A stretch of 64,000 nt of DNA from Phycisphaeraceae bacterium (GTDB taxonomy: Bacteria; Planctomycetota; Phycisphaerae; Phycisphaerales; Phycisphaeraceae), in assembly GCA_028280965.1 (NCBI GenBank), contig JANQKT010000029.1, positions 260 to 64,259 on the forward strand, written 5' to 3'. This document shows positions 11,714 to 32,620 of this stretch, piece by piece. The stretch's first letter is position 1. Every line of letters begins with the position of its first letter. A program made the position numbers and the translations under genes. Under the pieces are notes generated by a model, which saw only the letters and a list, made by a program, of their open reading frames with translations, was not told the origin of the DNA and made no database searches.

Positions 11714-11742
11714 TTGCCCACAAAACCCGGCCCGTGTAGGAT
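11714..11742 (+). promoter_or_regulatory. tRNA-Gly-type promoter, copy 1 (points into cassette A)
   Basis: TTGCCC-N17-(TG)TAGGAT; same layout precedes the other two tRNA-Gly copies. Confidence 0.65.
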
Positions 11743-11771
11743 CATGCATCGCAGAGGCTTAGGCCTGCTCT

Positions 11772-11809
11772 GCGGGTGTAGCTCAGTTGGTAGAGCGTCA
11801 GCTTCCCAA
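11772..11809 (+). repeat. tRNA-Gly(CCC) 5' half (38 nt, ending at the anticodon loop): att-like junction
   Basis: Identical to the first 38 nt of the tRNA at 26574-26502; diverges right after TTCCCAA. Confidence 0.93.
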
Positions 11810-12311
11810 CGGCTTGGACCCGATCCTGAAAACTGTTGATAGATAAGTGTTTATTTCATCAAACCCTTGCTGTTGTTTGGCTTGGGGCGCCGCTTTGGTC
11901 ACCTGCCGGACACCTGTTGGTCAGGCACTGGTCATCCGCGATGGCTCGTTTTGGTTGTTATTTGGTTGTTGTTTGATGACCTCCGGGGCTATAGAGATAT
12001 GTGGGAACCTTGGTTAATGCCAACTCAACGGCCTTTAACCATAGAGCTTTAGGGCAAAGGGATCTCTATCCTATTCGCAGACGGGGTATCAAGATGATCA
12101 ATTTGTGCCGATGATGGGCTCGCCGTCGTCAGTCAAATCAATTCGAATATTCAAAGTTACCAGGTCGTATGGACTTGACGTCAAAGGTGATGACGCCGCC
12201 GCCTTTACTTGTGTATCGTTGCAACCATTACAATTATACTGATTTGCCCAGGCAGTACGAGGTACGAAGAATCGCGCAGATACTCTACTATATTTGTATT
12301 AATGATCGCAC

Positions 12312-13163
12312 ATGAATACCAAAATCCTCCATAATGTCTTTATTGCGACTGCGAATGAGATCCTTGATGGACGATATAGAGAGTCCATTCAGGATTTGGG
12401 ACTAGTTGGTAGTCTTTCTGGGCACTACGGGTGGCATGATACTCGTCTAGCAGATTTAGACATATGGACACTCATGCCCTCTTTCTCCAACATTGGAGAC
12501 ATTGTTAAGATATTTGCAGATCTTTACAAAACGCTTCTCAAGCACCACTATCCAGATTCAATCATTCTCTCAGAAGCTGTTGACGGTCCCTATAAGCCAT
12601 CGCTCACCTCTGACAGATCTTCTATCGTGTTCCTTCACGTCTTGCCTGACACCCTAGCAACTTACAGGAATCGATCGCCGTTCACTCGGTACGCATGGAG
12701 AAAATATCCAACACTAGTTACACCGGATGTGTTGAAGCGATTGGCCCCAACGCAGCCGCCATCCATGACAGAATTAAGAGCGGGTCGTTGGGGAACGCGA
12801 GACCTAAAAGCTCAAATTCAGAGCAGTCAAGTTGTGTACACGCATTGGCGAGGATCTGATTCTTTTAGTATCAGATATGAAATGGGGACACCCCAGTTCA
12901 GCGAGTTCTGTATCTACTCTATTTTGACAACGGCAAGAAATGCATGCAGATCGCTAGGTCGTGACGAGGGTGATCGTCTTAATAATGAGGAATTCGCAAA
13001 CTTCATACATGCGAGAACAACCTGCACAAGCGTGCTGGAAGCGGTATATGCCAAATCGCAATCACGTCGGCATGGCCACGATACACTCGATGCAAAGGAG
13101 CTCCGAGCTCTTGCGTTAGCGTGGCTTGAGGAGATTTGGACCATTGTTCCAATGCTTGGTTGA
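12312..13163 (+). CDS. Putative nucleotidyltransferase (Pol-beta superfamily) with helical C-terminal domain
   Basis: hGhhGS (LGLVGS) followed by DLD (ADLDIW); rest unrecognised. Confidence 0.55.
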   Translation: MNTKILHNVFIATANEILDGRYRESIQDLGLVGSLSGHYGWHDTRLADLDIWTLMPSFSNIGDIVKIFADLYKTLLKHHYPDSIILSEAVDGPYKPSLTSDRSSIVFLHVLPDTLATYRNRSPFTRYAWRKYPTLVTPDVLKRLAPTQPPSMTELRAGRWGTRDLKAQIQSSQVVYTHWRGSDSFSIRYEMGTPQFSEFCIYSILTTARNACRSLGRDEGDRLNNEEFANFIHARTTCTSVLEAVYAKSQSRRHGHDTLDAKELRALALAWLEEIWTIVPMLG

Positions 13164-13174
13164 GTTGAAATTCT

Positions 13175-13879
13175 ATGAAACGCACATTTAACTACTATAG
13201 GTACTACGATGAACTCTTCGGCAGATTTCGCAACTATGATGATGACATCGCATTGGTGGAAACTCTCGCTGGCCCGATTAAAGAGCGAACGATCGTAGAG
13301 ATTGGAGCTGGCACGGGAAATCATGTGGCTGCATTGATCAAGAAAGGGGCGAATGTCCAAGCCCTTGATACGAATCCGATTGCGTGCCAGATTCTAAGGG
13401 AGCGTTTCTTGCCGGAGATGGATGTTGATGTTATCCAAGCGTGTGGGCTTAACGAGCCGCTGCAAGGAGACCTATTGTGTTGCTTCTTCCCAATCGCTCA
13501 GGAAGCACTTTGTGTTGATTCGCAAGCGCATAGGCTTGAGAGTTTATTCAACAAAGCAGATTCATTCCGCTCTGGAGTGATCTTTGAATGGATTGATATC
13601 GATAAGCATCTTGCAAAGTACGCGGGGCAATCGACCGACCTTGCCAATCCCTCAGAGAGTCTATGTATTAGCTTGACGAGTACTGAGGTCGATCAAGGCG
13701 CTTCTCTTTCCTACAGGGGGCACCTTGGTGGAGTGCCATTCGATTTCTCTGTAACCCTCCAAAGACTCTCGGAGTCAAACCTGCGAGAATTAGCGGGGAG
13801 ACTCGGGTTGCGGGCGAGTGCATTGCCAGTGTCAGCGTCCGGAAGAAAGAAGCTCTGGCACGTCTGCTTAACGCGCTAA
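13175..13879 (+). CDS. Class I SAM-dependent methyltransferase
   Basis: Motif I IVEIGAGTGNH, then ALD; 11 nt after the NTase stop. Confidence 0.8.
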   Translation: MKRTFNYYRYYDELFGRFRNYDDDIALVETLAGPIKERTIVEIGAGTGNHVAALIKKGANVQALDTNPIACQILRERFLPEMDVDVIQACGLNEPLQGDLLCCFFPIAQEALCVDSQAHRLESLFNKADSFRSGVIFEWIDIDKHLAKYAGQSTDLANPSESLCISLTSTEVDQGASLSYRGHLGGVPFDFSVTLQRLSESNLRELAGRLGLRASALPVSASGRKKLWHVCLTR

Positions 13880-14926
13880 ATGCTCAAGGCGACGGGAATA
13901 GGATTGCTCAAACCCCTGCATGTGCGACGCAAGTACATCGGGCGATTCAAGAGCCCGTCGAAAGAGATCAAGCAAATCATCGCACACTTGCTCTGTACTA
14001 CCCTTTTCTGACAAGGCCCATAGCATCGCAGTGTTTCCTCGAGGTGGGCGAGGGGTATCTGAGCGCGGAACAATGCAGTTCAGCAGTGATTGTAACGCCG
14101 TCTTCTCCAATTCCCCGCTATCCACAGCGTCAATCCAGTTTAGATTTGCAATGAGATCGCCGAACTGAAACGACAGGTCGTAAGTGTCACCAGATCCTGC
14201 CTTTATTCGAGTCCATGAGCGCCGAAGAGGCTCTGTGATTGATGACCCAGTATAGAGATGGCATTCTCCGATAGTGTTTTGTAGTCTAGATGTGAATATG
14301 TCCCACCCAGATAACCCGCGGTGGCCAAGTTCATGCTTGAGTAACATTTGCTCTGCCGCTACCAACCATTCTTGCAGCGATCGAGTATTCTCAGTTATCT
14401 GTTTATAAAGAAGTTCAAACACCTCAGCCACGTGGTCAGTGGCAATAGTTATCCTGCCAACTCGTTCATCTGGATAAACGAAGAACTGAAGTGGGTTTGC
14501 GGTAACCAGCGCGGGAGATTTCAGGTAGGAAACGGAAAGGCAGGGATGAATCTCAAAAGACTTCTCGTCAGAGATCCATCCAAATCCATTTGCAACCTGC
14601 CAGAATATGCCTTCTGTTTTGACCCTCGCTGGCGAGTCTAGAGCAATCCGTTGAAGTACTGCGAAGCATTCCTCGTAAGAATGGGGGGCTAACTTTAGGG
14701 CCAGACTCCACTGATCGTGCCGTATGTGGCTCTGCCATTCTTTTGGAGGCTGCTGACAGCGAGGGGGTCTTTCTTGCTCGGATAGTATAGTGCGGCGCCC
14801 TACCGTATGCCAACGGCTAAGTGGAACATCAGGGCTACGAGGAGCCGTGTTAGCCAAATAGCTCCAGTGATCTAATTTAATCAGAGTCTCATGCATTGCG
14901 GACTGATCTACCATTTTACGGGACAA
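13868..14926 (-). CDS. Hypothetical protein with HExxH zinc-peptidase-like motif
   Basis: LLKHELGHRG; start overlaps the upstream SIR2 gene by 19 nt. Confidence 0.6.
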   Translation of the reverse strand: MSRKMVDQSAMHETLIKLDHWSYLANTAPRSPDVPLSRWHTVGRRTILSEQERPPRCQQPPKEWQSHIRHDQWSLALKLAPHSYEECFAVLQRIALDSPARVKTEGIFWQVANGFGWISDEKSFEIHPCLSVSYLKSPALVTANPLQFFVYPDERVGRITIATDHVAEVFELLYKQITENTRSLQEWLVAAEQMLLKHELGHRGLSGWDIFTSRLQNTIGECHLYTGSSITEPLRRSWTRIKAGSGDTYDLSFQFGDLIANLNWIDAVDSGELEKTALQSLLNCIVPRSDTPRPPRGNTAMLWALSEKGSTEQVCDDLLDLFRRALESPDVLASHMQGFEQSYSRRLEHLAR

Positions 14927-31647: not shown

Positions 31648-31776
31648 TAGCTGATCATTAGGTGACCAATGGCTGGCCGACATGTAACCAAAACAGCTTT
31701 GCAAGCACATGCAAATGAAGGGCTTATTGTTTTAACTATATCTATATCAAGAGTTTTCGCAGCTGCGTATTAGCCG

Positions 31777-31814
31777 TTGGGAAGCTGACGCTCTACCAAC
31801 TGAGCTACACCCGC
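31777..31814 (-). repeat. tRNA-Gly(CCC) 5' half (38 nt): att-like junction
   Basis: Identical to 26537-26574; continues CGGCT...GAAAACTCTTGATA like the 11809 junction. Confidence 0.93.
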
Positions 31815-31843
31815 GTGAACGGCCTAAGCCGCTGCGACGCATG

Positions 31844-31872
31844 ATCTTACACGGGGCGGATTCCGTGGGCAA
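31844..31872 (-). promoter_or_regulatory. tRNA-Gly-type promoter, copy 3 (points into cassette B)
   Basis: TTGCCC-N17-(TG)TAAGAT. Confidence 0.65.
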
Positions 31873-31974
31873 GCGGCCACGGAACGGCGACGACAACCAC
31901 GTTTCTTTGAAGACCTTTGCGATCATCAAGGCGCAGGGGGAGTACTGATGGCAACAGCTTTGGAACTTGGGGAT

Positions 31975-32159
31975 AGCCCGTCCTTTTGCCAGTCATTAAG
32001 TCCCTGGGTCTTCGCCTCGAACCAAGCGTCGATCTGCTCCTCTGATCCAAGCGCCTGCTCGATGTCTCGGGCCTCGTAGATCAGGTCCAGCACGACCTTG
32101 TCCTCGACAGCTTCGCCGAACTTGTAGGTGTGGATGTAATCGCCGAAGACCTCGTAGCT
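31975..32159 (-). pseudogene. hsdR: Type I restriction subunit HsdR relic, right piece
   Basis: SYEVFGDYIHTYKFGEAVEDKVVLDLIYEARDIEQ...IDAWFEAKTQGLNDWQK. Confidence 0.75.
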
Positions 32160-32620
32160 AGCCCTAGCGACGTTCGATTGGTCGGCGAACTGGTTCTCAT
32201 GTTCGGCGAATGGGTTCAGCGGCACTACTTCAGTAACGGCGAAGTTAGCCTGGAGTGCACTAATATCCAGCACGCCTTGCGTCCGCTCGTAACCCTCTAC
32301 GGAAATCAGCCCGTTGGAGACCTCAACTTCAGCGTCTTCGAACGAGTGCGAGAGGCGATGGTGCGCTCGGACTTGTCCTAGAAAGTTGTCAACGCCCGGA
32401 TGCGACGCATCCGGATGGTGATGAGATGGGCGGCAGATCGTGAAATCATGCCGCCGGAAGTAGTTTCTGCCGGCGATGGGGTGCAAGCCCTCCGACCCGG
32501 TCGCCTTGGATTAAAGGAGGGGAAAGGTATGCAGCCGGTTGCCGAGCGAGAAGCCGTGACCGCATTGAAGCAACTGCCCCAACAGTGCGGGCGATGGTAA
32601 GACTTCACTGGTATACAGGC
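32160..32620 (+). pseudogene. Tyrosine integrase relic, core-binding region to the start of the catalytic domain
   Basis: NIQHALRPLVTLYG, in-frame TAG at 32379, VVNARMRRIRMVMRWA, frameshift, AMVRLHWYTG, then truncated before the catalytic Arg. Confidence 0.78.

Follow-up and report, generated by a model that had tools for sequence, protein, structure and literature searches.

Among the elements that integrate into tRNA genes, the 2002 study of Zhao and Williams (J Bacteriol 184:859) reportedly concerned an integrative element that recombines with the 5'-distal part of its target. To our knowledge, all of the known 5'-distal elements encode an integrase. According to the passage of PMC6563490 that lists the archaeal cases (citing Zhao & Williams, 2002), 5'-distal recombination is considerably rarer than 3'-distal recombination. 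A second type of related system is found in cis-mobilizable elements (CIMEs) and in the tandem accretion of islands of the integrative and conjugative (ICE) or integrative and mobilizable (IME) type (Pavlovic, 2004; Bellanger, 2011; reviewed in PMC5704250). The published cases of CIMEs involve the 3' end of the target gene, derive from conjugative elements, and come from Firmicutes and Actinobacteria (PMC5704250). Here, we describe a tRNA-Gly(CCC) locus of a planctomycete, a Phycisphaeraceae bacterium, in a 64-kb stretch of DNA (hereafter the window, the whole stretch analyzed) that comes from a metagenome-assembled genome (MAG) of 263 contigs obtained from a coral metagenome. The source reads were checked by means of the Logan contigs (k=31) of run X1. 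This locus, which includes two integrase-less islands called here cassettes X and Y, is likely a decayed integration hotspot, that is, a fossil, CIME-like tandem accretion with the rare 5' polarity, of which a segment of about 6 kb was inverted. Both 5'-distal integration and CIME-type tandem accretion were already known; what is new is their combination, in a planctomycete and with defence cargo.

The window contains one intact tRNA-Gly(CCC) gene, at 26502–26574 on the minus strand (ARAGORN; Rfam 75.6 bits), which is the only tRNA-Gly(CCC) gene found in the assembly. Positions 1–38 of this tRNA, from the acceptor arm to the last base of the anticodon loop, are present in three exact copies: 11772–11809 on the plus strand (copy 1), 26537–26574 within the intact gene, and 31777–31814 on the minus strand (copy 3). 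Copy 1, which is 100% identical to 26537–26574, is inverted with respect to the other two. No repeat of the 3' part of the tRNA was found anywhere in the window. In the history proposed below, copy 1 would be a displaced 5' half that now serves as attL of cassette X, copy 3 would be a former active copy brought by X, and the intact gene would combine the 5' half of Y with the resident 3' half (26502–26536).

Each copy is preceded by its own predicted promoter, TTGCCC-N17-TAnnAT. An earlier examination of the letters of this DNA (the original prediction) had pointed out these three promoter-bearing 5' halves, and the count agrees with it: the motif occurs at three sites in the 64 kb, where 0.04 would be expected, and exclusively before the 5'-half copies, whose upstream 60–95 nt are 81–86% identical among the three (alignments of 97–129 nt). 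Promoter U1 (11714–11771, plus strand; TTGCCC-N17-TAGGAT) abuts mobA/moaA, U2 (26575–26745, minus strand) includes the P arm of cassette Y, and U3 (31815–31925, minus strand) includes a truncated P arm of X. As had also been proposed, both truncated 5' halves stop at the end of the anticodon loop and continue with CGGCT...GAAAACTNTTGATA; the latter occurs twice in the window (expected, 0), only at these two junctions. The arm-like motif that had been placed some 85–110 bp inside both truncated copies, AGGTGACCAA, was recovered 86 and 107 nt inside them, and a third time 159 nt upstream of the intact gene (three occurrences versus 0.11 expected).

Beyond these junctions, the truncated copies continue into a homologous arm of about 200 nt (arm A1 against arm A3, score 50; shuffles, 16±2). 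Arm A1 of cassette X (11810–12010, plus strand) displays CGGCT, GAAAACTGTTGATA, ATCAA-N4-TTG, TGGTCA at +125/+147/+158, and TGGTTG at +181/+192 (tRNA coordinates). In arm A3 of cassette Y (31580–31776, minus strand), the distal repeats overlap the 3' end of an open reading frame (ORF) for a Toprim-like protein. The A-arm repeats (TGGTCA, then TGG(T/C)TG) all have the same direction and occupy conserved positions in A1, A3, and a further arm copy from the genome of a relative, G007. On the other side of the core, the P arm within U2 carries TGGTTG at –84 and –96 and TGGTCA at –166; in U3, the –84 TGGTTG site alone is retained, the distal sites being lost where an hsdR fragment replaces the arm. 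Upstream of U1 there is neither TGGTCA nor TGGTTG, and its similarity to U2 and U3 is lost beyond approximately –60, which is consistent with a native U1 and element-borne U2 and U3. U1 is thus probably the original chromosomal promoter of tRNA-Gly, and the claim that the cassettes bring their own promoter and 5' half agrees with the element-type arm repeats that U2 and U3 have and U1 lacks. To judge by their motifs, the X and Y arms look like those of a genuine two-armed attP. The idea that the A arm derives from the tRNA 3' half and its spacer by decay was rejected (local alignment 16, versus 15.9 for shuffles).

The arm copy in G007 (contig C6) is close to A1 (score 110), and is accompanied by a partial core but by no adjoining integrase. 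ATCAA-N4-TTG, which matches the consensus of the integration host factor IHF, lies between core and repeats in both A1 and this copy. Since the G007 copy stands beside a ptxABCD-like operon, an arm of the X/Y type is found next to unrelated cargo in another genome. This ptxABCD-like cluster for phosphite/phosphonate uptake and dehydrogenase, with a LysR regulator (L022 13841–19210 / L020 6200–6555), is located between tRNA-Ser(GGA) and the X-type arm, which is joined to just 23 nt of the tRNA-Gly 5' half. In other sequence collections, the 22-mer junction had no match in metagenome or viral contigs, and none of the 120 matches to a 15-mer was in a tRNA context.

As it now stands, the locus is no simple tandem array, because copy 1 is inverted. 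Two genes are split across the ends of a segment of about 6 kb (26194–32159, breakpoints ±10 nt). The first is hsdR, of which a left piece (..AVFIGFTGKPLLAKDRET) lies at 26100–26193 on the plus strand and a right piece, with matches to PF18766 and TIGR00348, at 31926–32159 on the minus strand; the right piece alone matches positions 165–220 of the PF18766 profile (51 bits), and the fused pieces give one continuous match to positions 140–220 (82 bits). The second is the integrase gene that adjoins the tRNA, a pseudogene in two pieces about 6 kb apart and on opposite strands. Re-inverting the segment repairs both splits simultaneously and aligns all three 5'-half copies in direct order, which indicates that the ancestral state is a true tandem array with a duplicated 5' half. 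On one strand, the restored order is mobA, U1 with its 5' half, A1, cassette X, the hsdR fragment, U3 with its 5' half, A3, cassette Y, then U2 with the 5' and 3' halves of the live tRNA, a palindrome, and the integrase. The tandem array of the original prediction is therefore absent from the DNA as now laid out but appears once the inversion is undone, and the accumulation of cassettes upstream of the tRNA is visible in the restored order.

Each inversion junction is spanned by one Logan contig of run X1 with no sign of an alternative joint, and the differences in depth between pieces follow GC content. Two other scenarios were discarded. Two convergent tRNA-Gly genes followed by a deletion are made unnecessary by the split integrase and hsdR, which indicate a single inversion. 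An inversion driven by the integrase through the palindromic anticodon stem was rejected because the breakpoints lie in the coding sequences of int and hsdR, neither at repeats nor at att sites. Either order of events, with the inversion before or after the arrival of Y, gives the present sequence.

No recombinase was found in X or Y by Pfam, PADLOC, NCBIfam, and PHROGs scans, nor any remnant of one by tblastn with the integrases of relatives, as the original prediction had anticipated; neither PF00589 nor PF00239 is present as a domain in the window. The protein scans of the window detected no conjugation or transfer genes in either cassette. In the whole assembly, there are three PF00589 hits, none of which belongs to the family of the resident integrase, and no resolvase; one of the hits is an unrelated integrase at tRNA-Leu, and the other two, of about 400 aa, we take to be Xer-type recombinases. 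No intact homologue of the resident integrase was found in the assembly.

The resident integrase itself had been described as the only one, situated just downstream of the tRNA 3' end. Its location was correct, but it is no intact gene, and no PF00589 domain is left in it. The N-terminal part (26207–26451, minus strand) was delimited by tblastn with nine full-length tRNA-adjacent integrases of relatives; it begins about 50 nt beyond the tRNA 3' end, covers aa ~3–56, reaches aa ~80 past one frameshift, and carries ..PKYRLHKPSGRAAVTLDGKDECLGPYDSEESR... The middle part (32160–32591, plus strand; aa ~83–220) corresponds to the core-binding domain, with an in-frame stop near 32379, and aligns at 32181–32591 with eight integrases from relatives (tblastn E values from 1.6e-5 to 4e-16). 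Only aa ~3–220 are present, and the catalytic domain is absent. This remnant shares the traits of its family: the N-terminus PxYRLHKPSG..YLG, a start on the same strand about 50–200 nt past the tRNA 3' end, and a palindrome ahead of the start codon. Within the same order, 33 of the 201 genomes contained frames matching the stump, mostly of about 400–500 aa; the one from G085, the only one tested with Pfam, is a tyrosine integrase. In nine of the 11 family members sampled in relatives, a tRNA gene of the same orientation (Val, Gly, His, Ile, Met, Asp, and Ala are among those concerned) precedes the integrase by at most about 200 nt. The three islands of this family with detectable repeats have the usual polarity, the tRNA 3' part being repeated 7–10 kb downstream, covering positions 33–75 of tRNA-Val in G112, 34–75 of tRNA-Met in G172, and 30–74 of tRNA-Val in G069.

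The palindrome between tRNA and integrase, AAAACGGTAATTACCGTTTT (26408–26427), has the same position and type in relatives, where pre-start-codon palindromes of the GGTA-N-TACC or GGTCA-N3-TGACC types are conserved across the family (they lie at ~1440–1480 in L025, L026, L029, and L033–L035). The far end is defined for three islands (G112, G172, and G069), and in each of them the half-sites of the palindrome recur in the far arm. These palindromes are candidate arm-type or operator sites, probably the former, with a lineage-specific sequence. In the window, the version of this arm motif is CGGTAATTACCG, also given as GGTAATTACC. GGTAAT and ATTACC are both absent from the arms of X and Y, which use TGGTCA(C) and TGGTTG; half-sites of the GGTCA type are present in other members of the family (G172 and contig C24 of G007). 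The resident integrase would thus be what is left of another, unrelated island with the usual polarity, the distal part of which was deleted; its family is widespread in this order. Judging from these motifs, it probably did not serve X and Y, and was rejected as their cognate enzyme since its palindrome half-site is missing from their arms. In our interpretation, X and Y would have depended on an integrase from the same broad family but with a different specificity.

Cassette Y (26537–31776) is 5.2 kb long and has retained both attL and attR, with arm repeats and exact core copies at each end. Its three ORFs, which are tightly packed, encode a PEP-CTERM/dockerin protein, an iSirtuin-nSTAND7 NTPase, and a Toprim-like protein; the last of these ORFs extends into the distal repeats of the A arm. 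The defence cargo, at 27689–31647, consists of the inactive-sirtuin nSTAND7 NTPase and the overlapping Toprim-like gene. The ORFs of 283 and 291 aa beside the arms of the two cassettes were considered as a shared novel recombinase and rejected, as they have no mutual homology and one is nucleotidyltransferase (NTase)-like and the other Toprim-like.

Cassette X, of about 14.7 kb (main part, 11810–26193), has a mosaic GC profile. It keeps exact core copies and a full A arm, together with the truncated P arm. Pfam, PADLOC, NCBIfam, and PHROGs scans revealed an NTase-like gene, a methyltransferase, a 352-aa ORF, a HAD-SIR2-STALD (ThsA-like) gene, a high-GC block of three large ORFs, an XRE-family helix-turn-helix protein, a 206-aa ORF, and the hsdR fragment. 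The HAD-SIR2-STALD fusion has no TIR partner, and the defence cargo here lies at 14908–17190. The three large ORFs (17605–24122, minus strand; 895, 751, and 556 aa) have a host-like GC content of 62–67%; those of 895 and 751 aa are paralogous to each other (36% identity over 231 aa), and none of the three has a match in Pfam, PADLOC, NCBIfam, or PHROGs except for a weak TPR. Exactly on the boundary between the low-GC and high-GC parts of X, a short segment (17380–17421, plus strand) resembles a decayed tRNA 3' end, with a T-arm GCAGGTTCGAATACTGC and an acceptor GCTCGCCA. Although no tRNA in the genome matches it and Rfam does not call it, this segment may be the relic of an att site used by another island. 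A 36-nt repeat at 17371 and 26166, examined as the att site of an inner island, was dismissed because it is at chance level and its second copy lies in the hsdR/int remnant region.

From their sequences, the orphan promoters U1 and U3 look intact (11714–12311 and 31777–31879, respectively). U1 faces the NTase and methyltransferase genes in the sense direction, and U3 faces Y, antisense to the Toprim and STAND genes. Other tRNA genes in the neighborhood include two divergent tRNA-Thr genes at 6381–6643 of the window and a cluster of six tRNA genes just past its end (contig C140, 65176–65812); in contig C206, about 30 tRNA genes are arrayed in 5.7 kb.

Comparison with other genomes was recommended by the original prediction, and it yielded related situations rather than the same locus. 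In same-genus genomes, the flank proteins are about 40–50% identical and neither mobA nor thuA adjoins tRNA-Gly; matches in exact-protein look-ups were confined to run X1. In G085, a complete genome of the same family, positions 1–41 of tRNA-Gly(CCC) are repeated 8.2 kb upstream of the gene. The insert, of 5'-half polarity, is an inovirus-like prophage with Zot, secretin, and Rep_1 (L036 11646–19992) that has its own 338-aa tyrosine integrase beside the displaced 5' half; a second, separate integrase of 426 aa lies downstream of the tRNA. The downstream integrase that had been sought in relatives thus exists in G085, but no empty site was found. In G001, a 5'-half copy stands alone, and its arm is different. 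In G031, an upstream region, 5' half, and CGGCT stand together on one contig, and a more distant, fourth arm copy has no adjoining integrase. On another contig, upstream of the intact tRNA-Gly(CCC) of this genome and divergent from it, a 414-aa ORF (contig C93; L190 2743–3984, minus strand) contains RHLGAT...LGHS...Y motifs but has no sequence match in Pfam or PDB. On the evidence of these motifs, which resemble those of tyrosine recombinases, the ORF may encode a highly divergent integrase belonging to an element with reverse polarity.

Among the 31 nearest genomes, 5'-only copies were found in two and genuine 3'-only copies in about four, so that reverse polarity is recurrent at tRNA-Gly(CCC) in this clade. 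Repeats start at positions 30–34 in the usual islands and end at positions 38–41 in the reverse elements, which places strand exchange within the 7-nt anticodon loop. The original prediction would have been overturned if relatives had shown that each cassette once encoded its own integrase. This is borne out in part: a 5'-polarity element with an integrase does exist at the same tRNA in G085, and perhaps, from motifs, in G031, but the kinship of these elements with the X/Y family is not demonstrable from the sequences.

The history that we favor begins with two related elements, X first and then Y, which would have been integrated through a tyrosine-recombinase crossover in the anticodon loop. 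The attP of each would have consisted of a promoter plus positions 1–38 of the tRNA, so that every insertion would displace the older promoter and 5' half and supply new ones. Both elements carry defence cargo, and are now att-flanked and devoid of recombinase. Y would either have been born integrase-less, as a satellite using an integrase in trans, or have lost its integrase cleanly; X is mosaic and decayed. An illegitimate inversion of about 6 kb would later have cut the integrase and the hsdR remnant, flipping the tRNA together with Y, and nothing at the locus would be able to move today. The sequence itself shows the repeats, the arms, the polarity, the split genes, the inversion, and the lack of recombinases; the order in which the elements arrived, the native origin of U1, the action of an integrase in trans, and the non-cognate nature of the resident integrase are inferred.

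Several points weigh against this history. The pairing of promoters and arms across the 38-nt repeat depends on the MAG assembly alone, Logan contigs being the only read evidence; the argument from arm motifs against the resident integrase is a reading of motifs; and what is called X here may be a group of several eroded cassettes. The searches found no closely related genome or strain in which an empty site, the un-inverted state, or variable cassettes could be seen. Finally, no integrase-bearing element with X/Y arms, and hence no cognate integrase of this arm family, turned up in the searches of relatives' genomes, metagenome contigs, and viral contigs.

The alternative that survives best is that of ordinary tandem islands, in which X and Y each came with their own integrase and became CIMEs by decay only, through its later deletion. 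This route is well documented for CIMEs (PMC5704250); the element of G085, with its 338-aa integrase beside the displaced 5' half, and the recombinase-like ORF beside the P side in G031 provide possible models for it, and decay is visible in X (hsdR fragment, mosaic GC, truncated P arm). However, the tight packing of Y, in which the A-arm repeats overlap the end of the Toprim ORF, the absence of any recombinase remnant detectable by tblastn in X or Y, and the occurrence of three arm copies beside unrelated cargo, all without an adjacent integrase, make it unlikely that decay alone explains both cassettes.

A further proposal is that X, Y, and the arm copy of G007 represent a family of naturally integrase-free defence cassettes, each with a complete two-armed attP including the tRNA promoter and 5' half, which hijack in trans a GGTCA-arm integrase of the tRNA-adjacent family. 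We consider this rather improbable. If it were true, tRNA-Gly(CCC) would be a cassette-stacking site, where newcomers rewire the transcription of the tRNA and leave a strong orphan promoter facing older cargo.

The integron-like platform of the original prediction, in which a fixed integrase downstream of the tRNA captures integrase-free cassettes made of promoter and 5' half and piles them up upstream, appears quite improbable. The restored order does place the integrase right behind the tRNA and outside both cassettes, the tRNA-Gly(CCC) gene of G085 likewise lies between an upstream insert of 5' polarity and a downstream integrase, and the arm copies A1, A3, and that of G007, with the distant copy of G031, have no neighboring integrase. 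Against this, the relatives of the resident integrase form ordinary 3'-repeat islands at several tRNAs, and the palindrome of this family recurs in its own far arms but is missing, as CGGTAATTACCG, from the X and Y arms. In addition, the upstream insert of G085 encodes its own integrase, there are no attC-like sites, the cassettes are not promoterless, and the resident gene is a pseudogene; service by this integrase is the part of the original prediction that finds no support. As for a mis-joining of strains or loci at the 38-nt repeat, which would make array and inversion unreal, the MAG comes in 263 contigs from a coral metagenome and the Logan contigs break at each copy of the repeat, but such an artefact is hardly credible given that the inversion junctions lie away from repeats, each inside one independent contig, that ORFs across the other contig breaks remain open, that depth tracks GC content, and that the set of junctions (three promoters, two arms, and one 3' half) exists whatever the pairing at the repeats.

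Under the history of a decayed, 5'-polarity accretion, integration on the rare 5' side has taken place repeatedly at a single tRNA of a planctomycete lineage, by at least three unrelated element types, and integrase-less defence islands can be stacked in tandem by this mode. The promoter of an essential single-copy tRNA would be swapped at each insertion, and, as the predicted promoters suggest, orphan stable-RNA promoters directed toward the cargo would be left behind. Island finders that look for a tRNA 3' repeat and an integrase would overlook the whole locus.

Among known systems, integrons resemble this locus in that integrase-free cassettes gather at one site beside an integrase gene, with the newest nearest to the site. 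However, there is here no IntI, no attC hairpin, and no common Pc promoter, and the X and Y units each come with a promoter and with an attP of about 350 bp that has two arms, as is typical for phage-type tyrosine integrases. Between 11000 and 33500, Rfam detected no structured-RNA or attC-like family besides the tRNA, and the cassettes are bounded by promoter-bearing tRNA 5' halves and by long arms. The analogy is unsupported, given that the neighboring integrase belongs to a family of ordinary islands, is seemingly non-cognate, and is dead. The usual tRNA islands, such as those of G112, G172, and G069, share with X and Y a crossover in the anticodon loop, and the remnant in the window has their tRNA-palindrome-int layout; they differ in that they duplicate the tRNA from positions ~30–34 to the 3' end and contain their integrase, whereas X and Y duplicate positions 1–38 and have none.

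The closest systems are those with which we began. As in the 5'-distal elements, it is the 5' part of the tRNA that is duplicated, up to the crossover in the anticodon loop, so the element must supply the promoter and the 5' portion; for X and Y, this promoter is a predicted one. Unlike these elements, X and Y have no integrase, are tandemly stacked, and carry defence cargo. With CIMEs, they share the att-flanked structure, the lack of integration genes, the tandem arrangement at a single target gene, next to what remains of an element that bore an integrase, and the expected dependence on an integrase provided in trans or in cis. The differences from CIMEs are the 5' polarity, the lack of conjugation genes, the planctomycete host, and the seemingly non-cognate neighboring integrase, no functional mobile neighbor for X and Y being present at the locus. 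Because X and Y are att-flanked and integrase-less, they are best described as CIME-like.

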